Positions 936 through 58,531 of a DNA stretch of 64,000 bases are shown piece by piece; within the stretch, counting starts at the first letter, position 1, and each line of letters opens with the position of its first letter. Source of the DNA: Malacoraja senta (lineage: Eukaryota); contig CM075990.1 of the NCBI GenBank assembly GCA_038087875.1, positions 12,340,001-12,404,000 on the forward strand, given 5' to 3'. Made by a program: the position numbers and the translations under genes. The notes below the pieces were generated by a model that saw nothing but the letters and a program-made list of their open reading frames with translations, did no database searches and was not told the DNA's origin.

Positions 936-1013
936 TATGTCATGTGTACCGAGGTACAGTGAAAAGCTTTTGTTACGTGCTATCCAGTCAGCGGGAAGAC
1001 AATACATGATTAT

Positions 1014-1041
1014 CTGAAGAAGGGTCTCGACCCGAAACGTC
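1014..1041 (+). ncRNA. Minimal (type I) hammerhead-ribozyme-like motif in a Penelope-derived terminal repeat
   Basis: CTGAAGA-A-GGGTC(TC)GACCC-GAAA-CG-TC: CUGANGA box, stem II, GAAA box and GUC cleavage triplet, with ACGU as a palindromic stem III. The insert is flanked by the 13-bp duplication tacatgattatct (1003-1015 and 1107-1119). Confidence 0.7.
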
Positions 1042-2005
1042 ACCCGTTCCTTCTCTCCAGAGATGCTGCCTGACCCGCTGAGTTACTCCAGCTTTTTGCG
1101 TTTATCTACATGATTATCTTTCTCCTGTTTCTCTTGTCACAAGTCCTCTCTGATCTGCTAGCTATTTCCAACATTTTCTATTATTTATTTTGTGCCATTT
1201 TATATTAACTAAGAAAAACAAAGTTAACATTTCAGATCAAAGACTCGTCTTCAATCAATTCTTCTGTCGTCCCCAACGAGGGCTGGACCTCTGTCTCAAG
1301 CCCCTCCACCCTCTCCAGCTATGCTCCTTCATGGTTTAGTGGGTGCTGGAGCGGGGTTTCATTGTCAGATGGCACAGCTGGGTAATCTCCACGACTTTGC
1401 ATAATTAACTGTTTACAGCAACTTACCACTTTATTGGTTCGTAATTTGAAAGTATGTTTTCAAACGAAAATATGCCTGAGATGATTGCTTGAGATTAACC
1501 CAGGCACTGGCAGCTGGCAAAAGGAAATGTCAGCTGTCCATTTGACACTGCATGCAGCGACTGGAACATTCATTTCTTCGGGGAAATTACGTCTTTTCTC
1601 AGTGGCTCTGCTATCTCGTAGATTCATACAGTATGGGAAATGTCCTTCGGCCCATTGAGTCAATAGACAATAGACAATATGTGCAGGAGTAGGCCATTTG
1701 GCCCTTCGAGCCAGCACCGCCATTCAATGTGATTATGGCTGACCATCCCCAATCAGTACCCCGTTCCTGCCTTCATCCCCATATCCCCATGACTCCGCTA
1801 TTTTTAAGAGCCCTATCTAGCTCTCTCTTGAAAGCATCCAGAGAACCTGCCTCCACCGCCCTCTGAGGCAGAGAATTCCACAGACTCACCACTCTCTGTG
1901 AGAAAAAGTGTTTCCTCCTCTCCGTTCTAAATGGCTTACTCCTTATTCTTGAAGTCCATGGGTGGAGAGATGTAGACTGGTCCTGGTCACGAGAGTCCCA
2001 AGGCA

Positions 2006-2305
2006 GGGCGGCACGGTGGCACAGAGGTAGAGTTGCTGCCTTACAGCGCCAGAGACACGAGTTCGATCCTGACCACGGGTGCTGTATGTACGGAGTTTGT
2101 ACCTTCACTCTGCCACTGCGTGGGTTTTCTCCGGGTGCTCCGGTTTCCACCCGCACTCCGAAGACGTACGGGTTTGTATGTTAATTGACTTGTGTAAATT
2201 GTCCCCAGTGTAGTATTAGTGTACGGTGTGATCGATGGTCGGCGCAGACTCGGTGGGCCAAAGGGCCTGTTTCCACGTTGCATCACTAAAGTCTAAAAGT
2301 CTAAA
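2006..2305 (+). mobile_element. tRNA-derived V-SINE (HE1-like)
   Basis: Box A tggcacagaggtagag and box B gttcgatcc. V-domain gggttttctccgggtgctccggtttc. CR1-like tail gggcctgtttcc. Confidence 0.8.
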
Positions 2306-2551
2306 GTGTGTGTGTCAACTAACATGCACCAATTCTCACTAATCCTACGTTATTCCAATATCATTCTTAACTCCCCTCATCCTTTCACTCACCCCATGCT
2401 AGGGGCATGTTTAGCAGCCAATTAATTCAGCGACCTGCATGCCTGCTTTGGTTGGTGTCAGGATTATTCACATTTTTCATATGGCCACCCTCCCAGATCT
2501 GATAAGCTGAACAAAATGATAGCCCTCATCCAAAATGAGCACGGGATTTAT

Positions 2552-2998: not shown

Positions 2999-4885
2999 TG
3001 TTGTGGCTTTACCTGCTTTTGCATTTCAACAAGTCTTGACAAGGCTGCCACAGTGGGCAGACTGTGTGGAATCACATGAGACTAACAACTCCAGCGATCT
3101 GTTTCAGAGAGATGCAGCCCTACACTGACTTTTGTTTAACCTTTTTAAATATTTACATTAAACGGCATTGACTGCCACAAGTTTTAAATAAAATGTACCA
3201 AATGTTGTTGAATATATAATATACAGTCTGAAAGCATCACCATTGTACTTGAAATGCAATTGCATTTAAAAAATAGAAAGGTATGGATGATTAATTTGAC
3301 TCATAAACCAGGTAATAGAGAGCTGCAGATGTTAGTTGTAATTTGTAACTCCTTGATTGCTGGAGTAACATAGAAACATAGAAAATACGTGCAGGAAGAG
3401 GCAGCACCGCCATTCATTGTGATCATGGCTGATCGTCCCCAATCAATAACCCGTGCCTGCCTTCTCCCCATATCCCTTGATTCCACTAGTCACAAGGAGT
3501 TGTCTCCTTGTTTTGTATGTGGAGAGAGGGTGTAAGTCCATAGCTCCCTGAGATTGGAAATACAGGTGAAATAGAGTATTCATATTGGAGCTTTATACAT
3601 TCTTGGTTAGGCTGCACTTGGAATATTGTCCTAATTTATATACTGCAATAACCCAACATTTAAATTGGAACTTAATGCTTGTCCCATTCTAATTATGCCC
3701 ACAAGTATTAGCCCTACTGAAATTAAACACATATGTAAGATTTAAAATATTGTATTGTTTATGGTGCTGGGGAGAACTGGAAACAATTTCCTCTCCGGTT
3801 ATGCTTAGCAAAGTAATAAGCTTGCTTATGAGAAAAGGACTACCTATTTATTACAGAGAGAAAATCTTCCACAGTGGGCACCTTTCATCCTCTGCAGGGT
3901 ATCTTACCAATACATCCTTTGCAAGTTTAATGCTCCGTTATTTGGCATTGATGAATTCCAGAGCCATCACTTCCAACCGACAACAGCTGACGAAATAGCA
4001 AATTGTGATGGGGATGCCTGGCTGTGCTTGTCAGCAGCTTTCAGACCAAGTGATGAAAATCTTGTCAGCTGAGAAAGTGTGTAAATAGCTTTAGCTCTGC
4101 TGATGCACCTGCCCCCCTGGGTACAGATGGATGGGATAACACCATCTCAGAGCAGTGCAACGGAAAGTTTATTGAAAGTGAGAAAATGCTGCGAGTAAAA
4201 TAAATGCCAAATGGGACAAACATTGTATTGCAAAATATGAAATTACTCCATAGAAACATAGAAACATGGAAAATAGGTGCAGGAGGACACCATTCGGCCC
4301 TTCGAGCCAGCACCGCCATTCATTGTCATCATGGCTGATCGTCCCCTATCAATAACCCGTGCCTGCCTTCTCCCCATATCCCTTGACTCCACTAGCCCCC
4401 AGAGCTCTATCTAACTCTCTCTTAAATCCATCCAGTGATTTGGCCTCCACTGCCCTCTGTGGCAGGGAATTCTACAAATTCACAACTCTCTGGGTGAAAT
4501 AGTTTTTTCTCACCTCAGTCTTAAATGGCCTCCCCTATATTCTAAGACTGTGGCCCCTGGTTCTGGACTCGCCCAACATTGGGAACATTTTCCCTGCATC
4601 TAGCTTGTCCAGTCCTTTTATAACCGTATATGTTTCTATAAGATCCCCCCTCATCCGTCTAAACTCCAGTGACTCATGATATAAAGTGGCACAGACTGTC
4701 GTGTACAAACATGTTCTCTGGATCTAGCACAACCTGAAGGTAAGGATGATAATGTTTGAATTCATGATGTCGTCAGAACTGGGAGCCAGTGTTAATGAGC
4801 TTTGGGATGAGAGGTGAACAAGACTTGGAGTGAGTCCAACAGTGAGCAGCAAAGCCTTGGGAGAAACTAACATGAATTAGTGATA

Positions 4886-5095
4886 GGAAGGAACTGCAGA
4901 TGTTGGTTCAAATCGAGGATAGACACAAAATGCTGGAGTAACTCAGGGAGGGCAGGAAACATCGCTGGAGAGAAGGAATTGGTGTCTGAAAGGAATTCAG
5001 TCTGAAGAAGGGTCTCAACCTGAAACATCACCCATTCCTCCTCTCCAGAGATGCTGCCTGTCCCGCTGAGTTACTCCAGCATTTTGTGTCTATCT
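4886..5095. mobile_element. Head-to-head Penelope-derived insertion with a 14-bp TSD
   Basis: atgaattagtgata at 4872-4885 and 5096-5109. Inverted arms with an internal degenerate CTGAAGA..GAAACATC. Confidence 0.75.
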
Positions 5096-6502
5096 ATGAA
5101 TTAGTGATATGGGTGACCCACTTGATAATTCTCATTGTATGTGTTTCTTGTTGTTTGCTTTAAGAATCCAATTGTCACATCCATGATCCAAAAAGAGGAA
5201 AATTCTTTGATTTAGATTAGTTTAGAGATACGGCCCGAAAAAACAGGCCCTTCAGCCCACTGAGTCCGCGCCGACCAGCGATCCCCACACACTAACACCA
5301 TCCTACACACACTAGGAACAATTTACAATTATACCAAGCCAATTAACCTACAAACCTGTATGTCCTTGGACTGTGGGAGGGAACTGGAGATCCCGGAGTT
5401 TAGTTTAGAGATACAGCACAAAAACAGGCCCTTCAGCCCACTGAGTCCGCGCTGACCATCGATCACCCTTTCACACTAGATCTCTGTTATCCCTCTCTCC
5501 CATCCCACACCCTACACCAAGGGCAATTTACAGTGGCCAATTAGTCTACAAACCTGTACGGCTTTGGGATGTGGGAGGAAACTGGAGCACCCGGAGGATA
5601 TTCACGCGTTCACTGGGAGAACGTGCAAACTCCATGCAGACACCACCCGAGGTCAGGATTGAACCCAGCTCTTTGGTGCTTCGAGGCAACAGCTGCGCTA
5701 ACGTGCCACCCAGTTGTGATTGAATTGTGCAAATCAGGGAAAGAAATTAATTAATGTGTTCACATCATGTAAGCTAGTTAACAAACCCAGCAGCCATTAA
5801 ATAATGTGAGGTTTACTGCTGATGTGCTTGTCTCTCTAATTATCTACACCCCAACCTTTTAAACACATTTATAGACAGCTTCCAGAAGCCTTGTTAGGTG
5901 ATGTTTGCTGGATAACTCTCAAAGCATTGCAACAATCCCCATTTGTAGCATTGCCTGAGTCTGTGTCTAAGTGTGTGGAAGGATCAATCACGGAAGGCAC
6001 TGCAGGAGACCCTCTGGCCCATGTTGTGTTTGACAACTCTACGGAAGCAACTTTGGCTGAAGGTGAAAGCTGTTACTGAAAGGAGGACCTCATTGGAACC
6101 TACCGAATAGTAAAATGCCGGGAGAGCATGGATGTGGAGAGGATGTTCCCACTAGTGGGAGAGTCCAGGACCAGAGGCCATAGCCTCAGAATCAAAGGAC
6201 GTTCCTTTTAGAAGGAGATGAGGAGGAGTTTCTTTAGTCAGAGGGTGGTGAATCTGTGGAATTTATTGCCACAGAAGGCTGTGGAGGCCACGTCAATGGA
6301 TATTTTTAAGGCAGAGATCGATAGTTTCTTGATTAGTCCAGGTGTCAGGGGTTGTGGGGAGAAGGCAGGAGAATGGGGCATGGAGGGAGAGATAGATCAG
6401 CCATGATTAAATGGAGGAGTAGACTTGATTGGCCGAATGGCCTAATTCTGCTCCAATCACTTGTGACCTTATGAACTAATATATTCTTATCTCTGCTCTT
6501 AG

Positions 6503-6575
6503 GATGAAAATGACAATTCTCCAACTTTTAGCCAACCCTCCTATGTCATGGCAGTCTCTGAAAACATAATCGCAG
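6503..6575 (+). CDS. CDH23: Cadherin-23 internal exon (approx. human exon 19), 73 bp, phase 0-1
   Basis: ag at 6501-6502 and gtgag at 6576. Translates DENDNSPTFSQPSYVMAVSENIIA(G), with the cadherin DXNDN calcium motif. Confidence 0.93.
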
Positions 6576-7302
6576 GTGAGACCGGTGAACTATCAGCAGT
6601 TCAGCTTCAGTCCATGGAAGGGTCCTGTCCTGAAACGCCGCCTATCCATGTTCTCCAGGGATTCTGCCTGACCCGCTGTTACTCCAACATAGTGTGTATT
6701 TATTTTGTAAACCAGCATCTGCAGCCCATTCTTTAACAGTTCTGGTCTTGCCCGATTAGCTGGGAGCACCTAGCCATTCCACGGAGAATATCGTTGACCT
6801 TTTATTGAGCCATTTATTGTTGACCTTGGAGGACATGGGCAACGTATCTTTGGTTTGGTGAGGTAAAGTGAGGCTGGTTACATGATCTGCCTGAATATTG
6901 TACAGGTGTAACAGTGTGGGATTCACTGCAGTGGATCCATGACAATCTTGTTTCCATACTCTATGTTTTTTTCTTCCATTTGCCTCCCCATGGTCATTGA
7001 GCGGATGGGGGTAGATGGGATGGGAAGGGAAGTGATTGATGCAACAGCAGCAGTCCAGTAATCAAGAGTGTCAGGTTTGACTTCTCCAATACTTGGCTAT
7101 TTCCTATTGACACAGGGAACTTCAGATGCTGGTTTACAAAATAAGTCACAGTGCTGGAGTAACTAAGTGGGTCAGGCAGCATGTTCTCTAGAGATACTGC
7201 CTGACCCACTGAATTACTCCACCACTTTGTGCTTTTTCTTGCCTATTCCCTGTATTTTGTTCCTTTATCCTTTTGTGACCGCAGTCTGTTTCTCTATCAC
7301 AG

Positions 7303-7419
7303 GAGCGACCGTATTGTTTGCCACGGCGTCTGATTTGGACCAGTCTCGGGAGTACGGGCAGGAGTCAATAATCTACTCTTTAGAGGGATCCTCGCAGTTT
7401 CGTATCAACACTCGCTCAG
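7303..7419 (+). CDS. CDH23: Cadherin-23 internal exon (approx. exon 20), 117 bp, phase 1-1
   Basis: Pyrimidine tract with cag acceptor and gtaga donor. (G)ATVLFATASDLDQSREYGQESIIYSLEGSSQFRINTRS(G); SREYGQESIIYSLEGS is characteristic of CDH23. Confidence 0.95.
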
Positions 7420-7647
7420 GTAGACTGTTTGCCTCTTAGGGGGAATTGACCAATCTGTCTCAATTTAATTGCGCAGTCATTCACAAGCAGGATTGATGAT
7501 TTCACCTAAGAAATAGTCAAGGGATCAGCTGAAGGACAAGTCAGAGCCTTAATGTAAATGGAAGGATTTCTCTCTTTTTTGATTTCACGAAACCGCTTTC
7601 ATTGAATATTGAAGAACTCGTAATCATTTTACAGATTCTACCACTAA

Positions 7648-7841
7648 AGGGCCTGTCCCACTTGGGTGTCATTTGCGCGTAGCGCAGATGGTGCGCGAAG
7701 ATTTTGTACATCCCAAAATCCTGGGGCGTGGCGCGCGATCGCGCGTCACTGCCTACGTCACCACGCACCATGCGCGCATCATGACGCGTAAATGATGTCG
7801 CGTAAATTACGCGTAAATGACGCCCAAGTGGGACAGGCCCT
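7648..7841. mobile_element. PIF/Harbinger-type MITE
   Basis: TIRs agggcctgtcccacttgg / ccaagtgggacaggccct. TAA and TTA flanks. Confidence 0.75.
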
Positions 7842-9013
7842 TTACAAACCTAGCAATGATAATACAATTACCTTGTTCAATAAAGAAAGCAACTGTTTGA
7901 TACTAATGAGTGAATGGGCTGTGCGAGGACTGCTGGGAGATGGCACTGTGGGTGCAGGGCATGCAGAGCCATGTACGCCTTATCTGTTTTGGTTTGTTTA
8001 AAGCCGAATTTCGTTTCCCAAGGCTGGCCACAGGGTTTCCACTTGTAATAACTCTTCCTCCTGGATTCCTAGCCAGAAGGCAGGTGGAGGCAAAAAAAAA
8101 AAAAATCAAACATGACAGTGATTCACAAGGCAAGTACTTTCATATAGAGGGAGTTGGGTATATGGAATGAGCTGCCAGAGGAGGTAGTTGTGGCAGAAAC
8201 TATAACAATATTTAAAAGCTATTTGTTCAGGTGCATGGATAGGGAAGGTTTGAAGAGATGCATAGAATAGAGTCATACAGCAGGGAAACTGGCACTGTGG
8301 CCCAACTTGCCAAATGCCGGCAGGTGAGTAGCATAGATGGGGCATCTTGGTTGACATGGGCAAGTTGGGCTGAAAGGCTGGTTCCCGTGCTCTTTGACTC
8401 TATGAAAGAAAAACCTGGATTCCATGCTCGATTCCAATTACTTTTCCAAATCAATCATAAGGCAATTTAATTACTAATCCATCTCCACTTGAGCTGTTAA
8501 ATGGGAGGGTTTTCCCACTGTGTTGGGGATGTCTAAAGCAGTCGCGTTGTGCTGTGATTTTTGCAACGGGGTGGAGAGATCTACTCGGGTGTAAAATGAC
8601 ACACCACCTGAGCCCAGTGGCTTGAAGTGGTCTGAACCTTCTCAAACCTGAAAAGTCTCAGTCATTGTGATAAACAAATAAAAACATACAATTGATCTGT
8701 TTGAGGATGAAGCATTTAATAATTGATCGAGAACAAAGAATGTTTGCAGTGGTACTGAACAAATCCTCCTGGGATAAGCCAGCAAGCCTGGCCTGGCTTG
8801 ACTCGACCCGAAATGTTTTTTGCAGAATTTGCAATTGACCCAAACCTGACACATACAGTTGAGATCTAGTGGACTTGAGTTTGAGTGTTTGTGTGAATTT
8901 ACTAAAGGCAAGAAGGGTAGTTGATCCGTAATTGGCCTTGGGTTGTCCATATATATATATATATCCTATATATAGATGATCTTTAAACTTCATGGTCTTT
9001 AAAGGAAAGATTG

Positions 9014-9325
9014 GTGTGGCATGGTGGCGCAGCGGTAGAGTAGCTGTCCTACAGCACCAGACACCCGGGTTCGATCCTGACTACGGGTGCTTGTCTGTAC
9101 GGAGTTTGTACATTCTCCCCATGACCTGCGTGGGTTTTCTCTGGAATCTTCCCCTTTCCTCCCACACTCCAAAGACGTAGAGGCTTGTAGGCTAATTGGC
9201 TTGGTATATGTGTAAATTGTCCCTACTGTGTGCAGGATATTATTAGTGTGCGGGGATCGTTGGTCAGCGCGAACTCAGTGGGCTGTTGGATCTGTTTCCG
9301 CACTGTATCTCTAAACTAAACAAAA
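9014..9325 (+). mobile_element. tRNA-derived V-SINE (HE1-like)
   Basis: tggcgcagcggtagag, gggttcgatcc, V-domain and ctgtatctctaaactaaa tail. Confidence 0.8.
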
Positions 9326-9553
9326 CACAAACCATGCATATCAAGATACACTTGATGTAAAACAAAGGGGAAGGCATCGGCCATTCAGTCCCTTGAGCAT
9401 GATCTTGAAATCAATTAGATCTTGACTCATCTGTATCTCTTGCCCTATTTCCATTATCCCTTGGACAAGACACATGGTTATTATTTGTAATTAATGCATT
9501 GACTTTATAACTGCCATTGTGCGATTATAACGATCCTGTCCATTTTCTTGCAG

Positions 9554-9666
9554 GGGAAATAACCACAACTTCACTGCTGGACAGAGAGACCAAATTTGAG
9601 TACATCTTGATAGTCCGAGCAGTAGATGGCGGAGTGGCAAACAACCAGAAGACAGGGATAGCCACA
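9554..9666 (+). CDS. CDH23: Cadherin-23 internal exon (approx. exon 21), 113 bp, phase 1-0
   Basis: ttttcttgcag acceptor and gtgagt donor. (G)EITTTSLLDRETKFEYILIVRAVDGGVANNQKTGIAT, with the LDRE motif. Confidence 0.95.
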
Positions 9667-12046
9667 GTGAGTGATGTTGCCATACCAACCCGCCGGCAGA
9701 ACACAGGTCTTGTGATGGGTGTCTCCCCTGATACAGATCTCTTCGCAGAGCTAATGGCCGCGTTTGTTCCACTGTCAGCTCCTGGCGGACAAACCTCATT
9801 TAGCTGACAGCAACTTCAAAAGCCAGCAGTGAGGATTGGGGCATTGACCGAGTCTTCGCTGCGGGCGGGCTTTGTCACACTGACATGTTTCCACTCAAAT
9901 GCTTGTACCTCCGGAGGTGCCAGTGTTTAAACTATAGCACACCGACGGCACGTAGGACATAGCACATCAGGCGGCACCCGGGTCTCTGGCCTTACAGTGC
10001 CAGAGACCCAGGTCAATCCTGACCACGGGTGCTGTCTGTACGGAGTTTGTACGTTCTCCCCGTGACCCGCATGGGTTTTGTCTGAGATCTTCGGTTTCCT
10101 CCCACACTCCAAAGATATAATCATAACCATAACCATAACCATAACAGCACGGAAACAGGCCATCTCGGCCCTTCAAGTCCATGCCGAACATTTAAAAAAA
10201 AAAAAAATTAAATTAAAAATAAATACTTCCCCCTAGTCCCATCTACCTGCACTCAGACCATAACCCTCCATTCCTTTCCCGTCCATATACCCATCCAATC
10301 TATTTTTAAAGGATAACATCGAACCTGCCTCCACCACTGGAAGCTCATTCCACACAGCTACCACTCTCTGAGTAAAGAAGTTCCCCCTAATGTTACCCCT
10401 AAACTTCTGTCCCTTAATTCTCAAGTCATGTCCCCTTGTTTGAATCTTCCCTACTCTCAATGGGATGTACTGGCTTGTAGGTTAATTGGCTTGGTATAAA
10501 TGTCAATTGTCCCTAGGGTGTGTAGGATAGTGTTAATGAACTGTGATCACAGGTTGGTGTGGACTCGGTTGACCGATGGGCCTGTTTCTACGCTGTATCT
10601 CTAAACTAAACACCCCTTTCAGCATGTTTCAAAGAGTTGTACACTAAGTAGTGTCGCCCCAATATTCTTGGCATCCTGACTGTGCATAGAAAGCTCCCAC
10701 AAACAACAGCGACAATGATCACTGACAACAATAATAATCAGACATTTTTGTATTGAAGTAGGTAGAAGGATAAATATTGGTCATAATGTTGGGAAAACTC
10801 CCCTGCTATTCTTCAAAATAGTGTCATGGACACTTTGACATCTACCATGGTCAGATTAGATGTCTTTAGTTTAGTTTAGATATATAGCGCGGAAGCAGTC
10901 CCTTTGGCTCACCAAGTCAACGCGACCAGCGATCACCTCATATACTTGCATTATCATATACACTAGGGTCAACATACAATCTTTACTGAAGCCAATTAAC
11001 CTACAAACCAAAATGTCCTTGGAACTAACTCAGAAAGATTCTTATTTATACTGCTGCATTCCTAATTCTAAGCTATAGTGCATGGAATGTGATGCATCTC
11101 TTACTTGAGTTCTTTCCAAGGAAACTTTCCAAGGGCATTTTGTTTGCATAAGCAGACTAGGCAGCTTTATTAAAGCATCCTTTTTACAATCCATCAGTTG
11201 CTGGTTGGAGTTATTGATGTCTCCCTAAGTATAGCCCTATAACTCAGTGTAATTCTGCAGGGCACTGGTGAGACTGCACCTGGAGCACTGCGTAATGTTT
11301 TAGGAAGGATATCCTTGTGGTGCAGAGAAGGTTCCGCAGGTTGATTTATGGGATGAAGGGGGTCGATGTTCAGCAGGTTGGATGACAACTCATTGGAAAT
11401 CAGAACAAAAGGTGATCTTTGTGAAACATGTAGAGAGTTTTCCAAAATGGATGATTTCATTTTAGTTCCTGCCTGGATAATGAGGCTAATGAGAATGGTA
11501 TGAGAGTTGGCATTGGCTAGTTGGGACCAATGGCTCCCAAGGGTGTCAGGGGTTTAAGGGGAGAAGGCAGGAAAATGGGGTTGAGGGGGAAATATAGATC
11601 AGCCATGATTGAATGGCGGAGTAGACTCGATGGGCCAAATGGCCCAATTCTTCTCCTAGACTTCTGAACTTTTAAGACATAGGAAACTATGATAAGCATT
11701 GGGTATTGTTACAGAATAAGGGCTCGTCCATTTCACTTGGAGATGATGAGAAATGACCTCTCTCAGTGGGTTGTTTCCATGCTGTATCTCTAAACTAAAC
11801 ATAACTTGTACCTTACTGCGACTATTGGGCAAGTGTCTGGTGTCAATGGGAGTTTATTTTAAATTGGCATAGCATCGACAAGTCCAGGGTCCAGTCAAGT
11901 CCAATACACGAATCTCCAAGAAAAATTCCTCTAATGTCACACTTTGCTTGAAATCTGTGTAGTTATAAAGCTACAGGAACTAAGATTGTCATTGTTTTGG
12001 TCCTGGTACTTATGACAATTAAACACGCGTGATGCTTCAACCAAAC

Positions 12047-12357
12047 GTCACGGTGGCGCAGCGGCAGAGTTGCTGCCTTACAGCGAATGCAGCGCCGGAG
12101 ACCCGGGTTCGATCCCGACTACAGGGTGTTGTCTGTATGGAGTTTGGACATTCTCCCTTGACCTGCGTGGGGTTTCTCCGAGTTCTTTGGTTTCCTCCCA
12201 CATCTCCAAAGATGTACAGGTTTGTAGGGTTAATTGGCTTGGTTAATGTAAAAAAAGATTGTCCCTAGTGGGTATAGGATGGTGTTAATGTGCGGGGATT
12301 GCTGGTCGGTGCGGACCCGGTGGGCCGAAGGGCCTGTTTCCGCGCTGTATCTCTAAA
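12047..12357 (+). mobile_element. tRNA-derived V-SINE (HE1-like); same subfamily as 58103-58398
   Basis: Full A/B boxes, V-domain and tail. Diagnostic cagcgaatgcagcgccggagacc shared with the copy at about 58136. Confidence 0.85.
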
Positions 12358-14064
12358 CCCAATTTATTCCATCGATCCTCACCGCAAAAGTGTAGTTTAT
12401 TGTTAATGTCACGTGTGTCGAGGTGCAATGAAAAGCTGTTTTGTCGTTTGCTGTCCAGTCAAAGAAAAGACCTTTACGTGACTACAATCCAGCTTTCCAC
12501 TGTGTACGGGGACAGGCTAAAGGTGATTAGTTTAGAGTCATATTCCCCATCCGTCTTAGCTTTAAAAAAACACAATCAATGATTCTGCCTGATCATTCTC
12601 TGTTCCGTGCCCGACACCACAATGCCTCTCCCAGCTTTTATCTTTGTCCATGCTGATAAAGGAATTGTCAGCAGACCTGTGCCATCGACCAAAAGCAATT
12701 GCAGTATTTCCCAACTCAGTCTGTCCGCCTTCAGTCTTTTGTTCACAGTTTGCAGACTGTTTTGCTTCAGCTGATGAGCAAGATAACTTTCCCATTCTCT
12801 CTCCACCGCTGGACGAAGGCCAGGACTGAAAATCACCGGACTTTGGCACGTGATCAGTTGCGAGCTTAGACTCAATCCATCCATCCATCCTGTCATTCGG
12901 CATGGAACCCCCGCAGCCGTTTCTTGCTCCTGCCTTGGTTGCTCTGCTGGAGAGATTTTCAGCATAGATAGTGCCTGGCCCATTCATATTTGTTCTTGCA
13001 AAGACTAAAGCAGGTTTTTGACCATTGTCGGGATAATGATCACAGCAATTGTTAAGGACTTGCGTTCCTTGGATAAGGAAAGATAACCTGCTGACCATTC
13101 CGGGAGAGAATGCAAGGCTTTGGACAAAGAGTGCACCCGATTTCTGTTATGTGTGCCCTGCCATGTTGAGCACGGCCATTGGCTTTTTCCTATGCAGTAC
13201 TGTTCTTTGTGGGCGACAGCACCCATAGTCTGGATCGCACCCGGGGCTCTGGCATGGTGAGGAAACAACTCTGCAGCTGCACCATTGTGCTCCTCTAGTG
13301 TTGGAGCAATTCAGCGTGTCAGGCAGCATCTGTAGAGGGAATAGATCACCTCTCTATTCCCTCCAGCGATGCTGCCTGACCCATTGAATTCCTTCAGCAC
13401 TTTGTGTTTCACATCAAAGAAGGTGTTGGTTGAGGAATGAATGTCACCAATGCAGAGGTATGGTTAGTATATAAAATAATATAAAATCGCGAGGGCAATA
13501 GATGGGGTGAAAGCACTGTGTCTTTTAACTAGGGAGGGGATTCAAAAACAAGAGTAGATAAATTTAAGGTGAGAGGAACGATATTTAGCATAAAAATATG
13601 GAGCAACTTTGTTACCCAGAAGTTGGTGGGTATATGGAATGAGCTGCCAGGGGAGGTAGTTGAGGCAGATGCTATAACAATATTTATAAGACACTTAGAC
13701 ATGTACATGGACAGAAAAGGTTGGAAAGGGTATGGGCCACATGCAGACAAATAGGACGAGCTTTGAAGGGGCATATTGGTCAGCATGGATGTGTTGGGCC
13801 GAAGGGTCTTCTACCACATTGGATGACTCTATGACATGACCAGGCAGCAGAGTTTTGGATGATCCCAAGTGTATGGAGAGTAAGTCGGGGCACTGAGCCA
13901 GAGTCAGTGTTTAAAGGGAATAAAACAGCTGAGTCATGGGATGCAGTGGTCAAAGGTGATTGTACAGTCCACAACCCACGTTGGGGCCAAATATGAGACC
14001 TAGATTACAAACTGATTAGCCTATTTTTAGAGTTGCCAGAGGGAGGGATATATGGAGGTGCTTG

Positions 14065-16013: not shown

Positions 16014-16057
<44 letters not shown>

Positions 16058-34521: not shown

Positions 34522-34545
34522 ACCTCTCACTATAATCCTCAAATC

Positions 34546-44344: not shown

Positions 44345-44640
44345 AGCTTAGAGATACAGCACCAAAACAGGCCCTTCGGCCCACCAAGTCTGCGCCGACC
44401 AGCGATCCCCGTCCGCCAACACTATCCTACACATACTAGGGACAATTTACAATTATGCCAAGCCAATTAACCTACAAACCTGTACGTCTTTGAAGTGTGG
44501 GAGGAAACTGGAGCTGCCGGAGACGACCCACGCAGGTCACGGGGAGAAAGTACAAACTCCGTACAGATAAGCACCCGTAGTCAGGATCGAACCTGGGTCT
44601 CTGGCGCTGTAAGGCAGCAACTCTACTGCTGTGCCACCAT
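44345..44640 (-). mobile_element. tRNA-derived V-SINE (HE1-like)
   Basis: Full-length reverse-complement copy. Further copies at about 5211-5710 (-), 9989-10610 (+, split by CR1), 51751-52053 (-), 55553-55782 (+), 58103-58398 (+), 61125-61310 (+) and 62560-62858 (+). Confidence 0.85.
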
Positions 44641-44899
44641 TCTGGTATCTAAAACTCTAGCTAAATGAGTATCAGTATCAGAAAAGCTGGTATCATGGGA
44701 TGAAGCTCATTAATTTTGTTAAATTAATTAAACTAAAAAGTAGTAATTGGACTTTGAATAAATGTGCAATTAATTGTTCCTGTTTTGAATTTTATTGTGT
44801 CATTGTCTTCCATAGTGAGTTGTGCAAATCGCTGTTCTGAATAATGCTTTTTATTGGGCAGGGGAGGGGACACGGGGGGGTGAGTTTATGGAGCCAAAG

Positions 44900-45490
44900 G
44901 GTGGCCCAAAATAGGTTCCAGGGAGAGCTGGGTGACCTGAGTAGAGAACTGGCTTCATGGAAGGAAGCACAAGAGAGATGGTGGAAGATTGTTTTTCCAG
45001 ACTGGAGGCTTGGGATTAATGGTGTGCTTCAGAGATCGGTGCTATTTGTTTATATCAACGATTTGGATGAGAATGTACATGGCATGATTAGTAAGTTTGC
45101 AGATGACACCAAAGCGGGTGGTATCGTAGAGAGGGAAGATGGCCATCAAAAGTTACAGCAGGATCTTGATCAGCTGAGCAAGTGGGCTGAGGATTGGTTG
45201 ATAGATTTAATGCAGATAAGTGCCAAGTGCTGCATTTTCAGAACTCGATTCAGGACAGGACCTGAGGGGCGACTTTTTCACACAGAATGTAGTGGGTTTG
45301 TGGAACGAGCTGCCAGAGGAGGTAGTTGAGGCTGGTACTATAACGACATTTAAGACATTTGGACAGGTAGGTGGATAGGAAAAGTTTAGAGGGATAGGGG
45401 GCAAATGCAGGCGGATGGAACTGGCATAGATGGGGCATCTTGGGCAAGTTGGGCCGAAGGGGTTGTTTTTGTACTGTATGAATCTACAGT
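44900..45490 (+). mobile_element. Degenerate, internally deleted CR1 LINE fragment
   Basis: VYINDLDENVHGMISKFADDTKAGG..LQQDLDQLSKWAE joined to a CR1 3' end. Confidence 0.75.
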
Positions 45491-46338
45491 CTGTCTATAA
45501 TATCCTGTTGATTCTCATCATTATTGCACTGCGGAACATGGTAGCAAGATAACTTTCTCAAAGCTCATTAACTATCTGTGTCTGTAATATTGGCGGGTAG
45601 AATTCTAATCTATTTTACTTCCCTGGTAAATAATCCCCATCTACTCCGCTTTAATTTTCCCAAGTGCATTCCTGCTGAGGTGAGGAAGTAAATGGCTGCT
45701 TTAGATTTGGGAATATCGAAAGGTGCAGGAATGAGTGGATGTTCACAAAGTTCACAAACTTTCAATGATACCATGTAGATGGTCTGGAGTCTGTATTTTC
45801 TTTATGGCAGAGGAAAAATTGGCGATACATTTGTAAAGAGATCATTTCGAAACTTGCAATGGAAAGAGTCAGGGAAAGAAAAGCACAATTTGAGTTGGTG
45901 AAAATATGTGAGGAAATCTGCTCCGCCCATAACAAATAATTGCAGAGTTGTGGGTGCAGCCCTGCATAAACCGGCTTTCACCACCCCCCCACCCCCCCCG
46001 CTCACCCCATCATCTCCATCTATATTTCACGCTGTCATGAGAAAACAGCCAAAATTATCAAGGACCACTTGCACCCACTTGTACCATCAGACTTGGGTAC
46101 AACTTCTTCCCCATTGTTATTACACTACTGAACATAAGGGTGTAGTCCCGTTCTTCCAACCTACCTTGTTGAGCCCTCGCACATATTTTTATCTACACTT
46201 TCCCCCCCCTACCTGTTGTACATGTGTTACGGTTTGATTGTACTCGTGCATGGTAAGACGTTACTGGATAGTGTGTGTTGAACAAAGTTATTCATTGTTA
46301 CAGGAGACAATCATAAACCGTTACCAATCTTCACACAG

Positions 46339-46487
46339 ATAATGGTCCCGCTGGAGGCAGAAGGACGGGGACGGCCACTGTGTACGTCACGGTGATGGAT
46401 GTCAATGACAACCGCCCCATCTTCCTGCAGAACACCTACGAGGCCAGTGTCCCTGAGAACATCACGGAGTCCACTAGCGTGCTGCGG
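46339..46487 (+). CDS. CDH23: Cadherin-23 internal exon (approx. exon 28), 149 bp, phase 1-0
   Basis: cacacag acceptor and gtgagt donor. (D)NGPAGGRRTGTATVYVTVMDVNDNRPIFLQNTYEASVPENITESTSVLR. Confidence 0.94.
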
Positions 46488-47605: not shown

Positions 47606-49969
47606 CAGAGCCGGATTTACCACTAGGCTTCATAGGCTGAAGCCTAGGGCCTCAAAATCTAGGGGGGGCCTCCGGCCAGGGCAGGACACCTGCCGTTCAA
47701 CTCTGAACGAACCCCCCTCTCTATCTCTCTCTCTGTCACTCTCCGTCTCCGCCCACCATCCGTATTCAGCACCCATATTCAGGATCAATTCCGGGTCTCT
47801 GGCAATTTTAGGCAGCAACTTTATGGCCACTGTACTGCCCCATAGTCTTGAACTGAATTAAAACATACAGTAGCTGTAAAGGGGGCCATAGAGTCACTTG
47901 GAGATTTAACACTGAAAATGGATATTTTCATTTTTTTAGTAACCAAAGTTATCAACGTATAATTTTTTGTGTGTTGGAAAACAAAATATAGTGGCACAGC
48001 TGGTAGACTTGCTGCCTCACACGCCAGAGATCTGTGTTCGATCCTGTCCTCGGGCACTGTCTGTGTTGAATTTGCAAATTCTCCCTGCAAGCGTGGGGGT
48101 TTCCTCCCACATCCCAAAGACGCATTGACTTTGCAGGTTAACTTGTCTCTGTAAAATTGCCCCTAATGTGTAGGGAGTGGGTGAGGAAAGTGGGATAACA
48201 GAACGTGTGAATGGGTAGACAAAAATGCTGGAGAAACTCAGTGGGTGAGGCCGCATCTATGGAGCGAAGGAATTAGGCGAGACCCTTCTTCAGACTGATG
48301 TGAGGGTGGGGGGGACGGGAAGAAAAAAGGAAGAGGCGGAGACAGTGGGCTGAGGGAGAGCTGGGAAGGGGAGGAGAAAGCAGGGCCTGAAATTGGAGAA
48401 GTCAATGGTCATACCGCTGGGGTGTAGGACAGAAAGGTCGGATTCGGAATGGGAGGGGGAGTTGGAGTGCTGAGCCACCGGGAGATCAGGTTGGTTATTG
48501 CGAACCGAGCAGAGGTGTTGGGCGAAGCGATCGCCAAGCCTACGCTTGGTCTCACCGATGTAGAACAGCTGACACCTAGAGCAGCGGATGCAATAGATGA
48601 GGTTGGAGGAGCTGCTGGTGAACCTCTGCCGCACCTGGAAAGACTGCTTGGGTCCTTGAATGGAGTCAAGGGGGGAGGTAAAGCGACAAGTGTAACATTT
48701 CCTGCAGTTGCAAGGGAAAGTGTCAGGAGAGAGGGTGGTTTGGGTGGGAAGGGACGAATTGACCAGGGAGTTACGGAGGGAGCGGTCTCTGCGGAAAGCC
48801 GAAAGGGGAGGAGATGGGAAGATGTGGCCAGTGGTGGGATCCCGTTGATAGACAAAAAAGCTGGAGAAAATCAGCGGGTGCAGCAGCATCTATGGAGCGA
48901 AGGAATAGGCGACGTTTTGGGTCGAGACCCTTCTTCAGATTGATGTTGGGGGGGGGGACACGAAAAAGAAAGGAAGAGGCGGAGACAGTAGGCTGTGGGA
49001 GAGCTGGGAATGGGAGGGGAAGGAGAAAGCAAGGACTACCTGAAATTAGAGAAGCCAATGCTCATGCCGCTGGGGTGTAAACTACCCAAGCAAATATGAG
49101 GTGCTGCTCCTCCAATATGGGGTGGGACTCACTCTGGCCATGGAGGAGGCCCAGGACAGAAAGTTTGGATTCGGAATAGGAGGGGGAGTTAAAGTGTTGA
49201 GCCACCGGGAGAACAGGTTGGTTATTGCGAACTGAGTGGAGGTGTAGTGCGAAGCGATCGCCAAGCTTGCGCTTGGTCTCACCGAGGTTGATCATACGCT
49301 GAATAATCCAACCACATTTTTGTTTGAAAGAAATAATAGAAATTGCATTCATTGCAACGTGTAAAAAGAGTTGAGCTACTACTGTATTATAATTTTGCTG
49401 CATGTCATTGTGGTATATATCATGTCTTGATTGGTGAATATGTTTAGTTTGTGACTTTATTTGAAGCAGAAATAATATGTGAATGCTTCATTGAGCATAA
49501 TTCCGACTGATAACTATGCACTTGGTCCGAGCACATTATCGCACGCATCATGTAAGCCGTCTTAAATGACTTAACAACTTAAAAAGCTGCCAAGGTTGCC
49601 CAGCCAACAGAGAAAAAAATTAAGTGAGAGCCCTGCAAGGTGTATAATATTTTTGACACTGTCATAGGCCTTTCTTACATATGTTGTCACAACGCACTGT
49701 AGTCTCTAAACAACCCTTCAGTAATTTTCCTTGCCCTCCATTTCAGAATAGTAGTGTTTTAAGCCGATAACTCGACACTAGCACTGGCAATAAATAAATA
49801 AATAAATAAATAAGCGCAGCTTTCCAGCCGCTTATCTCATTGGCCACGCTCGGCTGCAAATCGGTGTCAATCTGGTGGACCATCTTCCTCTAGTCGTGGG
49901 GGTCGGGGATTGGGAGGGGCCTCACAAGTGGAACAGCCTAGGGCCTCTCTTCATCTAAATCCGGCCCTG
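47606..49969. mobile_element. hAT-like non-autonomous transposon splitting a V-SINE and hosting nested SINE and Penelope insertions
   Basis: TIRs cagagccggattta / taaatccggccctg. Subterminal agcctagggcctc at both ends. The SINE resumes after 49969. TSD not clear. Confidence 0.7.
48216..49290 (-). mobile_element. Penelope-like element remnant: GIY-YIG endonuclease fragments plus a partially tandem-repeated 3' end (pseudo-LTR)
   Basis: TFPCNCRKCYTC...NLIYCIRCSRCQLFYIGETKRRLGDRFAQH (ORF 48290-48889). A second unit GETKRKLGDRFALH (49062-49403). Both lead into the ctgaagaagggtctcgaccc terminal repeat. Confidence 0.85.
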
Positions 49970-50854: not shown

Positions 50855-53716
50855 TGACACTTCAAAGCTTCAGGTTGAATAATGGTTGTAGAACCACTTC
50901 CCGTCAGGAGCAGAATAACCTTCTCCATTCTCCGACAGTCCACTTTCAGATTTTTACTGTTCTATTTTGATGGACTTAGTATGTTCTTTTTCCATTCAAT
51001 GTCGATCATTGGGAATTCAGTGTCGACCAAACAAGTGCATTGATCCTTTACCCAATTCAGTTGGTCTGCTGAATGTGATTAATTTCTGCCAACGTGTGAA
51101 ATGTTTGCTCTGCATGTTAGATCTGGCCACTGCTCAGTGGCTGCCTGTTGAAATGTTTAAGCAGACAATATTTAGTGTACAGTCGGTCGTGGCCAGTATC
51201 AGACAAGCAAATAAGCTTGTGCCCTGCACATCTAATTCCTAACACCTGCAGAAAGGCAGCAAAATCTGGGTTGGAGGAGATAGATAACCCAGCAGGCAAG
51301 ACCTGTGGGGCCTTGAGTGGAAAATATAGACACAAGGAACTACAGACATCCAGTTTGTGAGTAGGGAGGAACTGTTGGTGTACACAGAAGATAAACACAA
51401 AATGCTGGAGTAACTCAGCGGGACAGGCAGCATCTCTGGAGGAATAGGTGACGTTTCGGATCGAGTCTGAAGAAAGGTCTCGACCCGAAACATCACCCAT
51501 TCCTTTTCTCCAGAAGTGCTGCCTGACCCGCTGAGTTAGTCAAGCTTTCTGTGTCTGACTTCCCTTTAACTGTAGTTCTCCAGCTCTGGTAATATCCTTG
51601 CACCCTCTCTCTTGTTGCCTTGTCCTGGTCAGTGCATTGATGAGCAATATAAACAGTACCCAAGTTGTGGCCTAACTAATGTTCTCTTCTAATTAATATG
51701 GTTGAAGTATTATTGTTTCAGACCCAACAATGGGGCTTCAAGAGGTGACGAATTTAGTTTATTTCTGAGATACAGCGCGGCAACAGGCCCTTCATCCCAC
51801 CAGGTCCACACCGACCACGATCCCCGCACACCAACACTGTCCTACAAACACTAGGGACAATTTACAATTATACCAAGCCAATTAAACTACACACCTGTAC
51901 GTCTTTGGAGTGTGGGAGGAAACCGGAGCACTCGGAGAAAACCCACGCAGGTCACGGGGAGAACGTACAAACTCCGTACAGACAGCACCCGTAGTCGGGA
52001 TCGAGCCCGGGGTCTCTGCCGCTGTAAGGCAGCAACTCTACCGCTGCGCCACCCTCTAAGTTGGCCAGGCTATAATTGCAGTACAGCACAGAGGGAGCGT
52101 TGCAATGGCAGAGACGCCATGAAGATCAGGAAGTGAAGGCTTCCATGGAACTGGTTAAAAAAAGAGCTGGTCCTTGGTCCTGTGCCCACTACACTTTGCT
52201 TAACAAACATGCCTAAAACATTCTAATTGGTCGTTCATTTGACTTTAAGCCTTTATTGTGTACAAAATGTTCAGCTTAATGACATTGATCTACTTAATGG
52301 TCCCTGTAAGACTTCAAAGTAATTACATTTATGCAAAGTGCTTTGAGACTCTTGAGACCAGCAGATGAATTGCAATGGAAGTAAAAATGTTTTTCTCCTT
52401 TAACTAAATGAACTGGAGTAGACTAATGTTAATGTGATATTTACCATAGTGAGAAAATATGTACATGCATGCACATATTTCCCAAGTAAGTCCTTTGTAC
52501 TCCCCCTTCCCAGTTCTCCGACCAGTCTGACTGTCCCCCTGATTTCATTTTATTGCTGTATGCATCATCGTCAATCTTCCCCGAGCTAACAATGATCTAT
52601 TCTATGTTTTCCTTGACTTTTGTCCCCTTTGATGTCTCATTTTCACACCTTACCCTTCCATATCTCTGTGTCTCCCTCTCCCCTGACTCTCAGTCTGAAG
52701 AAGGGTCTCGACCCAAAACGTCACGCGTTCCTTCTATCCAGAGACACTGCCTGACCCGCCGAGTTACTCCAGCATTTTGTGTCACCCTTTAAGACTTCAG
52801 TGAGGATCCTTCCAGCAATGTAGTCGAAGTGTTTGGAGCGCAAGTCTTTCACTCACTAGCTACTTTTTGTCATGCATCGTAATGTTGACAGTCTTCTTGC
52901 AGTAGAATCAATTCGACACAGTTAAATGATTACTGGTGGTACCGCATCCTGACTCCAATGTTGTTTCAAATGTTCTGACACTCGGCAACCTACCTTTACC
53001 AGAAATCACGATCATTTAAATTTTTAAGACATGGTCATGACTCTGGATTAGTGTACTCAAAATGTGATTGAAGTAGTCATCTTGCACTTATTCCCTGGAG
53101 GTACTGACTCAGTCCTCCGCTAGTTTTGTTAATTCCTTCTGTGGAATATTTTGTTCCACCTAATTCACGGCTTGTGCTGTTTCTGATGATATGCACTGCG
53201 GCGTTTCCTCGGATTAAAAACACCCAGGGGAAAAAAAAGACACAGGATCATAAGTTGCAGGAAGTGCGCAGCTTGTTTTAGCATAACCTCCACAGACCCT
53301 GCCCAAAATATTTGTTATTAATAGAATAAACGGCGCTGCACGGGGGCGCAGCGGTAGAGCTACTGCCTTACAGCGCCACAGACCCGGATTCGATCCTGAC
53401 TACGGGTGCTGTTTGTACGGAGTTTGCACGTTCACCCTGAAGTCTGAAGAAGGGTTTTGACCCGAAATGTCACCCATTCCTTCTCTCCAGAGATGCTGCC
53501 TGTCCTGCTGAGTTACTCCAGCGTTTTGTATCTACCTTTGATTTAAACCAGCATCTGCAGTTCTTTCCAAAGCATCTGCTGTTCCTTCATACACCTAACC
53601 ATTCCAAGAAGTCTTTCCATGGCAAGTACATGCCTTCCTATAAAAGGTGCTTAAACACAGTTGCTCCTGAAACAAACACTTCTTCTTCTTGCGTATGGCT
53701 TGCACAGCCTAAAGTT

Positions 53717-54909: not shown

Positions 54910-55509
54910 TTTTTTTTATTTTTTTTTTTAATTTTTTTTTTTTTTTTTAAATTTATTAGAAGTACATTACATTACAACCGCATACATTAGTACTCGTCAT
55001 TTATATCTTCTTACAATTAATGTACTCCATTTATTTTTTATACTAGAAAAGGAAAAGATTTGAAAGAAAGAAGAAAGTGAAGGAAAAAGTGAAAGTGTAG
55101 AAAATGTGACAACAAAAAAGGACGAAGACCCTATAAGAGCAAAATTAAAAACAAAAGAAAAAGAGTTAAGAAATAGGCCCTAGAAAAGAAAGAGAAAGAG
55201 AAAGAGGAAAAAGAGAGAAACAAATATTTTTATGAGCATTACGCAAATGGGACATACCAACTCTTCAACTATCATCCCCCCTTACCTGACCTCAAATTTT
55301 TTTTTTAAGGTACCTTTGCACCCTATATTTGTAATAATTCTATAAATGCAGACCACGTCAGGTGGAAGTGATCTGGTTTACCTGCCAGGAGGAGTCTTAT
55401 CTCTTCAAGGTGTAATGTTTCAAACATATTTGAAATCCACATATTTATAGTTGGTATTGGAGCCTTCTTCCAAAATTTTAGAATTAGCTTTTTTCCAGTT
55501 ATTAACCCA
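54910..55509 (-). mobile_element. 5'-truncated L1-clade LINE (ORF2 C-terminus, 3' UTR and poly-A)
   Basis: 15-bp TSD gatcgactcagcctt (54895-54909 and 55510-55524). Poly-T on +. GKKLILKFWKK-P-INMWISNMFETLHLEEIR...F..TWSAF resembles the ORF2 end of fish L1. Confidence 0.85.
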
Positions 55510-56503
55510 GATCGACTCAGCCTTGTTAAAACCAATTCAGTATTTAGGGGTAGCCAAGCAGCGCAGCGGCAGAGTCGCTGCCTTACAGCCCCACACACCC
55601 GGGTTCGATCCTGACAACCACGGACGCTGTCTGTACAGAGTTTGTGCGTTCTCCTGTGACCACGTGGGTTTTCTCCGGGTGCTCCGGTTTCCTCCCACAT
55701 TCCAAAGACATGAATGTTTGTAGGTTAATTGGCTGCTGTATGTAAATTGTCCCTAATCTGTAGAATAGAATTGGTGTATACCCTGAATTTGTGTTACCAT
55801 GTACTGCAGCACATCATGAGTTGAGAGCCACTGTTTGCGTCTCTTCCTATGAATGTCAATGGAAATAAAAATCAGGAGAGACGAAAATCAGCAAATTGAA
55901 GGGGAAAAGATTTACTCGGAGTCTGAGGAGTAACTTTTTTACACAAAGGGTGGTGGGTGTGTGGAACAAGCTGCCAGAGGTAGTTGAGGCAGGGACTATC
56001 CAACATTTAAGGAACAGTTAGACAGGTACCTGGATAGGACACTGTGTAAGAAGGAACTGCAGATGCTGATTTAAACCAAAGATAGACATGAAAAGGCTGG
56101 AGTAACTCAGCGGGACAGGCAGTATCTCAGGAGAGAAGGAATAGGTGACATTTTGGGTCGAGAAGGGTCTGAAGAAGGATCTCGACCCAAAGCATCACGC
56201 ATTGCTTCTCTCCAGAGAAGCTGCCTGTCCCGCTGAGTTACTCCAGCTTTTTGGATAGGACAGGTTTGGAGGGAAATGGACCAAACGCGGGCAGATCGGA
56301 ATAGTGTAGCTGGGACATGTTGGCTGGTGTAGGCAAGTTGGGCCAAAGGATCTGTTTCCACGCTGTATCACTCTATGACAGGCAGGTAACCTGCGGCATG
56401 TATGAAACAGCCGCTGAGAGTGAAATTGGTCCCTTTTTTACACAAAGAGTGATACGTGCCTGGAACACGCTGCCAGAGGTGGCGGTGGAGGAGGAAACGA
56501 AAG

Positions 56504-56539
56504 AGGTCTGAAGAATGGTCTAGACCCGAAACGTCACCT
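56504..56539 (+). ncRNA. Hammerhead-like motif with a potential 4-bp stem I (AGGT/ACCT)
   Basis: AGGT-CTGAAGA-AT-GGTC(TA)GACC-C-GAAACGTC-ACCT. Confidence 0.6.
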
Positions 56540-58531
56540 ATTCCATATCTCCAGAGATGCTGCCTGACCCGCTGAGTTACTCCAGCACTTTGTGTCAATG
56601 TTGTGCGGCGTTTACAAGGCTTTTAGAGAGGCACGTGGATATACAGGGCATGGAGGAATTGCGGCAGGCAGAGGAGATTAGCTTAACTTGGCATCATGTT
56701 GAGTACATAAATTGTGGGCTGATGGGTATGTACCCATACTGTCCTGTTGTATGTCTTGTTAGCCCACGTCAATCCTGAAGAAGCGCCGAAAAGTGACAAT
56801 TGGACTCACGGCCCGGTTATTGCCCAGATATGTATCCAGATCGCTTCAGAGAGTGACGTGGTTTGACTTGTATTTACCTTGCATGACCAGCTATCGATAA
56901 TCACATTCCCATTGCCATTTTGACTTTGAGTGTAAGCAATTTTCACTGCCATTTAAAATTGCTCCAGGTACCTTTTGTTGGCTGTCAGTTGAGATTATAT
57001 GCTTCCGTTCTTATTTCTCCCTCAAATCCGACCTTCAGGACACTGACTCATTTCAATTCACGTTTAAATGCAGCACATGGCTGGAGTTCAGCTGCTGAAC
57101 AATCTGCCCCTTGGGGTTCCCTCAGCAATACTTACTCCCCCCCCCCCCCCAGATTACAGGGTGCTGAATCACTACTCGCCCTCTGCACCTCCCATCTCAC
57201 ACACACACACGGACTCTACACCCACCTCCACACTTTACCTTCCCACACCCCCCCCCCCCAATCCTTAAAGCCCATCACAAGATCTTACCCCATCCACCTC
57301 CAGCCATCCATCTTTCCATATACAGGTGCATAGATAGGATTGAGTCACAGAGTCATACAGTGTGGAAATAGGCCCTTCGGCCCAACTTGCCCACACCAAA
57401 CCAACATGCCCCATCTACACAAATCCCACCTGCCTGCAGGCACAAAATCCTGGAGTAACTCAGCGGATCAGGCAGCATTTCTCGAGGAAAGCAACAGGTG
57501 ATGCTTCGGGTCAGGCCCAAAATGTCACCTATTCCTTTTCTCCAGCGATGCTGCCTGACCTGCTGAGTTAATCCAGCCTTTTGTGTCCGTCTTCGGTTTA
57601 AACCAGCATCTGCAGTTCCTCGCTACACATCCCACCTGCCCTCTAAACCTGTCCTATCCATGTACCTGTCTAAATGTTACAATAGTCCCTGCCTCAACTA
57701 CCTCCTCTGGCAGGTTGTTCCATACACCCACCAACCTTTGTTGCAAAATATACCCCTCAGATTCCTATTCAATCTTTTCCCCTTCACCTGAAATGAGTGT
57801 CGGAATATTTTTCACGGGGCAGATCTAAAGGGCACATGTCTAATGTGCGAGGAGAAACTTAAAGGAGATCTGACGGGTATGTTTATTCACACTGAGGATG
57901 GTGAATATTGGGAACGAGAAAATGATAAAATTACTTCATGTAAACATTGTTCAGACAAGTACTTGGAAAGGCATCGAGGGAATGAGAAGGAACTGCAGAT
58001 GCTGGTTCATGCCAAAGATAAGACACAAAATGCTGGAATAACTCACCGGGTCAGACAGCATCTCTGGAACAAATGGATGGGTGACATTTCAGATCGGGAC
58101 GGAACGGTGGTGCAGCGGTAGAGTTGCTGCCTTACAGCGAATGCAGCGCCGGAGACCCAGGTTCGATCCCGACTACGGGTGCTGTCTGTACAGAGCTTGT
58201 ACGTTCTCCCCGTGACCTGCGTGGGTTTTCTCCGAGATCTACGGTTTCCTCCCAAACTCCAAAGACGTACAGTTATGTAGGTTAATTGGTGTGGTAAATG
58301 TAAAAATTGTCCCTAGTGGGTAATAGGATAGTGTTAATGTGCGGGGATCGCTGGTCGGCGCGGACCCGGTGAGCTGAAAGGGCACTGTATCTCGAAACTT
58401 CAGACTGCATTCCAAGGAAGGGTCTCGACCCGAAACGTCACCCGTTCCTTCTCTCCAGAGAGCTGCCTGTCCCGCTGAGTTACTCCAGCTTTTTGTGCCT
58501 ATCTTTTGTATTCGGAGGAATGTACGCGTAA

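Follow-up and report, generated by a model that had tools for sequence, protein, structure and literature searches.

Penelope-like element stubs in CDH23 introns of the skate Malacoraja senta often end at the 5′ edge of a minimal-hammerhead-like motif

The 64,000-nucleotide stretch of Malacoraja senta DNA analysed here (the window; assembly GCA_038087875.1, contig CM075990.1, positions 12,340,001 to 12,404,000) lies entirely within CDH23, with 10 exons of this gene on the + strand, one of them 85% identical to catshark cadherin-23. Its introns hold numerous short insertions carrying a hammerhead-like core, which we trace here to the terminal repeats of Penelope-like elements (PLEs). The link between ribozyme and Penelope is already published and the skate motif is a known class in another vertebrate; what is new is a hotspot at the 5′ edge of the hammerhead where the short copies (stubs) end, often with an untemplated G.

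An earlier note, made from the window alone, had listed positions for this motif. It is present at every one of them, and both conserved boxes (CTGAAGA and GAAA) together with the ACGT palindrome are kept at 1014, 16517(-), 24976, 36448, 40450 and 56508. A profile of the module (~95 nt), built from 29 natural copies, gave 53 matches in the window versus 0 in 5 Markov-shuffled windows. The block at 39755-42535 duplicates 35752-39554 at 96-97.5% identity on the other side of a 200-N gap; this 2.8-kb duplication is probably an assembly artefact, so that the copies at 40450 and 42452 are not independent of those at 36448 and 39471, and 48 modules are left when the block is excluded. All five target-site duplications (TSDs) claimed in the note are present and measure 10-14 bp, but the insertion at 29708/29899 proved to be an inverted pair without a CTGAAGA box. 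Positions within the module are numbered from the C of CTGAAGA (position 0), which places the predicted cut between +27 and +28. The principal copies, many of them single ends of a PLE pseudo-long terminal repeat (pLTR), are as follows.

742..898, unstranded: head-to-head inverted stub pair, joint inside stem II
1003..1119, + strand: solo pLTR stub with intact core; 13-bp TSD (1003/1107), its end overlapping the CTGAAGA box
4872..5109, + strand: stub with an upstream inverted arm carrying the tail; 14-bp TSD
16414..16527, − strand: solo stub with intact core, start at −1; 10-bp TSD
24955..25078, + strand: solo stub, start at −3 after 7 extra bases ending in G; 11-bp TSD
29708..29912, unstranded: inverted pair without CTGAAGA box; 14-bp TSD
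36364..36540, + strand: inverted pair, core of the + arm intact; duplicate at 40367-40541
42449..42574, + strand: restart tandem (unit to +26, G, full stub from −3); duplicate at 39468-39555
48215..49292, − strand: partial tandem of two 5′-truncated Neptune-type PLE ends, with CxxC linker, GIY-YIG and 3′ untranslated region (UTR); damaged modules at 48941 and 48296
51390..51559, + strand: inverted pair, + arm starting at −3 after G
52500..52784, + strand: longer copy whose 3′ UTR is pyrimidine-rich and belongs to a different PLE lineage (B1)
56082..56253, unstranded: inverted pair with tail arm
56506..56599, + strand: solo stub retaining both boxes and ACGT but with its first stem II pair broken
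6503..46487, + strand: span of the 10 mapped CDH23 exons; further exons lie outside the window on both sides

The high copy number that the note had supposed was borne out genome-wide: the 1.94-Gb genome has 13,276 exact matches to the 31-mer from 0 to +30 (0 to the reversed control), and 479 module matches in 120 evenly spaced 10-kb stretches (1,198,400 bases) extrapolate to ~780,000 modules, a figure that counts the arms of inverted pairs separately. Both values far exceed the 4,000-9,000 copies given for coelacanth and Xenopus, which were counted by a different method (PMC4209133).

Judged by its sequence features, the motif is almost certainly the published minimal hammerhead (type I) of Penelope-type retroelement ends, as the note had proposed. 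In 258 sampled copies the CUGANGA and GAAA boxes and the NUH cut triplet are the majority bases, the triplet being GUC, or GUU in the youngest family; an extra A separates positions 9 and 10.1 in 95%, G10.1-C11.1 is the commonest pair, and the palindrome is ACGT. Published minimal hammerheads of PLEs share both boxes, a nucleotide between 9 and 10.1, G10.1-C11.1, a palindrome in place of helix III and a position in both pLTRs, and most of their copies are likewise dispersed singly or as nearby opposite-strand pairs (PMC4209133). The extra A, which the note had entered as a caveat, is thus a hallmark of the class (PMC4209133). Helix II measures 4 bp plus a tetraloop and helix I 1-2 bp in the skate, against 7-8 and 4-5 bp in Schistosoma; helix I of D. 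virilis has 2 bp (PMC4209133). The consensus of the family keeps CUGANGA and GAAA and maps to a pLTR; the stem II covariation that the note had also looked to is, in two-sided form, absent within the family in this genome, where stem II varies one-sidedly only, from U-A to U-G (40 versus 19 of 258). The same pattern was found in unrelated metagenome contigs, whose 81 matches have 46 distinct interiors, 42 of them self-complementary and with several pair types at the first free pair; this pairing supports the motif class, not this skate family. An Rfam scan of the window returned 20 matches at E ≤ 5, none of them a hammerhead.

Self-cleavage by the skate motif is probably low on the folding models. 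Cleavage is doubtful because stem I is only 1-2 bp long, helix I having 1-2 contiguous pairs in all 7 folds; stem II has a predicted probability of 0.00-0.62, and about 0 in the youngest-family monomer, while the ACGU duplex is computed at −3.1 kcal/mol. Monomer folds of window copies were no better than shuffles in 5 of 6 cases (z −0.2 to 1.0). Published minimal hammerheads did not cleave as monomers and were weak as dimers (PMC4209133), and the Anolis hammerhead needs the element's protein to cut and is dispensable for insertion (PMC11167929). At L223:3464-3600, a module with tail, the CUGAAGAAGG box is predicted to pair with the end of the tail in a closed domain (z −2.0); such a fold could be a protein-binding structure that keeps the ribozyme off. 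Boxes, stem II, ACGT and cut triplet are all kept in 5 of 26 core-spanning window copies (4 without the duplicate) and in 51 of the 258 sampled copies; in the 56508 copy the first stem II pair is broken although both boxes and ACGT are kept. Non-CpG differences amount to 121/2,274 bases in the core and 286/5,057 in the flanks (p=0.58), and the G of GAAA reads A in 63/248 copies through CpG decay. Selection on the core after insertion was rejected on this account, as the core decays at the flank rate.

The parent of these copies, as read from its coding sequence, is an autonomous Neptune-type PLE, the clade being set by the linker motif alone. The GIY-YIG remnant at 48215-49292(-), on which the note had placed the motif, indeed has two modules, both with damaged hammerheads, and encodes a C-x4-C-x2-C linker followed by GIY-YIG (Pfam E 1.6e-4, just below the curated cut-off). 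Its shark and ray relatives carry a reverse transcriptase (RT; RVT_1) upstream of GIY-YIG, and a genome search with that RT gave many identical matches in long frames, from which 16 loci (L221-L236) were taken for inspection. Over 1,356 bp of the RT-endonuclease region the 16 loci share 99.4-100% identity, so this PLE family moved very recently, and YIDD, C-x4-C-x2-C and YIGET follow in order in 15. Five (L221-L224 and L226) are units of pLTR, open reading frame and pLTR, 3,918-4,152 bp long with the module in both pLTRs, in keeping with the note's derivation of the motif from a Penelope terminal repeat; the module lies 163 nt before the first ATG (ATG at +163) and again ~120 nt after the stop. 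The open RT and GIY-YIG frame runs to 1,224-1,302 codons, its length differing between copies. This very young autonomous family (L221-L236, group G000; for example C8:47635900-47645800) has the GUU cut triplet. A search of metagenomes with a shark PLE protein gave 74 candidates, 0 of them confirmed.

Six upstream sequence types share the module, and long copies reach GIY-YIG coding sequence in 13/19, 8/9, 2/16, 4/8, 1/6 and 2/16 cases per type, many being too short to reach it; by their sequence, six or more coding PLE lineages have left the tiny copies as stubs of their pLTRs. Their 3′ ends cluster at +90..100 and +129..132, and the same two ends recur in contigs of 4 other sequencing runs. 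In the Anolis Poseidon element PAc, two internal RT starts account for the optional 30-40-nt tail and the hammerhead lies upstream of both (PMC11167929), as in the skate; unlike PAc, the skate ATG at +163 lies behind the RT starts and the protein has a Neptune CxxC linker. Neptune PLEs likewise combine a single frame of RT, CX2-5CxxC linker and C-terminal GIY-YIG with partial tandems, inverted 5′ copies and a tail (PMC8557442), although the skate frame is long. Partial tandems, inverted 5′ copies and the optional 30-40-nt tail are all present in the skate family, with TSDs of 9-15 bp and an upstream inverted arm in 188 of 457 module matches, inverted 5′ arms being a known PLE trait (PMC8557442, PMC3846280).

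The 5′ ends were analysed in 457 of the 479 sampled matches (16 unalignable matches and 6 at locus edges were left out), with boundaries set by local alignment to 16-22 natural reference copies, so that a few bases are uncertain, and with both arms of inverted pairs counted. Among 259 copies reaching position 0, 141 have their 5′ end at −5..0; this corresponds to 0.12 per base, ~20-fold the background of 0.005-0.009 per nt at +16..+45 and −41..−290; restricted to non-inverted copies the figure is 76/176. Exact genome counts fall from 17,712 (+4..+30) to 13,276 (0..+30) and 6,050 (−4..+30), meaning that over equal 4-nt steps 75% of copies survive from +4 to 0 and then 46% from 0 to −4. TSDs abut the stub starts, and the DNA upstream of hotspot copies is not PLE-like, being pyrimidine-rich in 1/75 compared with 64/67 long copies. 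Modules show the hotspot whether or not their type has a tail, as do both sequence types (19/45, 63/117), and all lineages read (T/C)CAGT there. By comparison with the initiator consensus, TCAGT is initiator-like, and an initiator-like TCACT has been noted in a rotifer pLTR (PMC3846280). Non-inverted short copies also carry the tail more often (21/61 and 22/55) than long ones (9/54; p=0.035 and 0.010).

At the hotspot the base before AGT, which is C in the element, reads G in 777, A in 584 and T in 467 cases genome-wide, giving G in 42.5% compared with 28-33% expected. Restart junctions are informative here because the stub follows a partial self-copy, so that the templated bases are known. 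Bases at these junctions were counted by hand among the matches listed: the first 100 of 579 rows in one list gave, in 34 non-C rows, G 26, A 5 and T 3 before AGT (p 3e-7), with at most 3 of the 26 G's potentially templated and G before ATCAGT in 7 rows, and the first 100 of 491 rows in another, which shares a few rows with the former, gave G 27, A 15 and T 13 in 55 (p 0.011). An untemplated 5′ G has been ascribed to cap copying in L1 and SVA (PMC3287187, PMC11702581).

We favour, with some reserve, the reading that the commonest stubs of ~100-135 bases are complete cDNAs, which would run from an internal RT start in the pLTR to the predicted capped 5′ end of the mRNA at −3. RNA polymerase II would start at the initiator-like TCA(+1)GT, three bases before the CUGAAGA box, and the element's protein would nick the target and prime at either of two internal sites. 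Priming in the 5′ pLTR would run off the cap after ~100-135 nt, often with a C added opposite the cap that yields the extra G, and the run-off cDNA may then be joined in, fold into an inverted pair or restart on the template; priming in the 3′ pLTR would give ordinary 5′-truncated copies. The hammerhead would stay uncut in the templates, with weak cutting at most predicted when no partner copy or protein is at hand, and would decay neutrally after insertion. More tentatively, and a shade short of an even chance in our estimate, the dispersed minimal hammerheads of this genome, hundreds of thousands in number, may mostly be such cap-to-primer leader cDNAs, a strong-stop-like by-product of PLE activity whose run-off end may jump to the 3′ pLTR and so build partial tandems.

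In retroviruses, minus-strand strong-stop DNA is the short first cDNA made from an internal start, with a tRNA primer, to the capped end. Unlike it, the proposed stub cDNA would take its primer from the nicked target DNA, with no tRNA involved, and would go into the genome in that form. Nothing on PLEs was found in the strong-stop and strand-transfer literature, nor any description of the stub-end hotspot with extra G in the literature searched (Repbase and subscription journals lay outside its scope). The excerpts of PMC4209133 call single motifs ‘probably related to truncated PLEs’ and describe no end hotspot; those of the PAc study report uncut RNA as the template with no RNA ends at the cut site, and leave aside the questions of a capped end and of short run-off insertions (PMC11167929).

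Several observations weigh against the capped-end reading. None of the 5 full-length units begins at −3, all reaching 33-2,443 nt beyond it on the upstream side; most invertebrate instances of the motif have no TCAGT; and the Drosophila Penelope start lies 46 bp before an intron ending at helix I (PMC2377424, PMC4209133). The pyrimidine tract plus CAG here also resembles a 3′ splice site. The G excess is weaker at plain flank junctions, where a random non-inverted sample gave 6 G, 6 A and 2 T and young-family junctions had G in 39 of 100 listed rows; exact TSD+G+AGT was found in 1 of 30 young loci, 9 of which join by microhomology without G, and some G's can derive from the inverted partner arm. 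The tail difference, too, may reflect family mix. Upstream extension of all 5 full-length units also suits the idea that stubs are ordinary 5′-truncated copies from the 3′ pLTR, on which RT tends to stop at the module's 5′ edge (through RNA structure, bound protein or a splice-site complex) and adds untemplated bases, as does the usual 5′ truncation of PLEs (PMC8557442), an end hazard already climbing from +15 inward, and a folded 137-nt module with tail in which the GAAGAAGG box is predicted to pair with the tail end and close a domain at about −3 (z −2.0). A stall, however, predicts neither G specifically nor G before three purine starts (−6, −3 and −2), and the hotspot persists whether or not a tail is present and whichever sequence type is taken; we regard this explanation as unlikely.

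It is less likely again that the solo stubs are themselves masters, forming a SINE- (short interspersed element) or retrozyme-like non-autonomous family with its own start that is mobilised in trans by the PLE protein, as the earlier note had in effect proposed. The nearest neighbours of short copies are short more often than with shuffled labels (0.84 versus 0.65, p=0.012), which counts against the capped-end reading and could result from a mixture of families or from some amplification of stubs. DNA can be mobilised in trans by pLTR sequences on their own (PMC3846280), retrozymes have been argued to derive from pLTRs (10.64898/2026.07.22.740005), and an identical capped RNA could come from any copy that keeps TCAGT, which makes the extra G compatible with stub masters. 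Short young copies, however, show no diagnostic difference from the autonomous pLTR (21/30 are identical over +31..+87 and 28/30 lie within 2 mismatches), hotspot copies have no upstream body of their own in common (of the 12 pairs with similarity, most are local duplicates or owe it to a passenger within another repeat), and for every upstream type one or more long copies run into GIY-YIG coding sequence. There is no tandem array of the unit in the window (10 tandem rows), the genome-wide look being limited to short restart duplications; with the flank-like decay of the core, these results disfavour the separate retrozyme-like family of the note. Animal non-LTR retrozymes resemble the skate copies in their type I hammerhead, their link to PLE pLTRs and the existence of dispersed monomers, but are defined by 150-450-bp units in tandem, whose hammerheads are canonical or complete, and by circular RNAs (PMC7229834; 10.64898/2026.07.22.740005), whereas the skate copies are solo TSD-flanked stubs with a minimal core, identical to the pLTRs of coding elements. 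Least probable of all, and very much so, is an origin from RNA that was either spliced, with an intron ending at the CAG that precedes the hammerhead, or cut by the ribozyme. All six upstream types do end in a pyrimidine tract plus CAG, and a joint skipping 152 nt to the hammerhead edge is present in contigs of 4 runs, but only 10 genome-wide matches to this join were found, with unlike junctions, and no common exon stands between TSD and stub. Ribozyme-cut templates were rejected, as 5′ ends form no heap at +28 (11/402 at +26..30, the background rate) and the restart junctions are continuous from +11 to +43 with no edge at +27.

The copies inside CDH23 lie on both strands without bias (27 + versus 21 − among the 48 window modules, p=0.47), so that + strand copies do sit in its introns as the note had stated; they look like neutral intronic debris, and an effect of the hammerhead copies on CDH23 pre-mRNA is unlikely. 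The CDH23 exon at 30234-30402 aligns in two frames (break 30353/30355), as does a second exon 17.9 kb upstream of the window; both breaks are probably single-base assembly errors. Antisense within a CDH23 intron, 60351-60791 (-) is a single open frame matching DUF5527 (E 5e-48), which we take to be the C10orf105 orthologue. Remnants of other long interspersed element (LINE) RT frames occupy CDH23 introns at 14371-15453 (-) and 21467-22644 (-). A larger repeat with short inverted ends, at 47606-49969, holds the GIY-YIG remnant as a passenger, and the same repeat with its insert is found at other loci (for example L052, L056-L058 and L063) at 85-95% identity; from its structure it is likely a non-autonomous DNA transposon that amplified the PLE fragment. 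Elsewhere in the genome, L061:1526-4539 (-) has frames like those of an RT/RNase H element, presumably DIRS-type.

If the capped-end reading is true, the start of transcription of a vertebrate PLE would be mapped to the base and the ribozyme would fall in the leading 31 nt of the mRNA, so that cleavage there would remove the cap. The end statistics offer a testable account of why lone PLE hammerheads occur in huge numbers, of the promoter site in the pLTR and of a hammerhead role at the front of the mRNA, and the very young intact family would make a natural substrate for working out how PLEs transpose.

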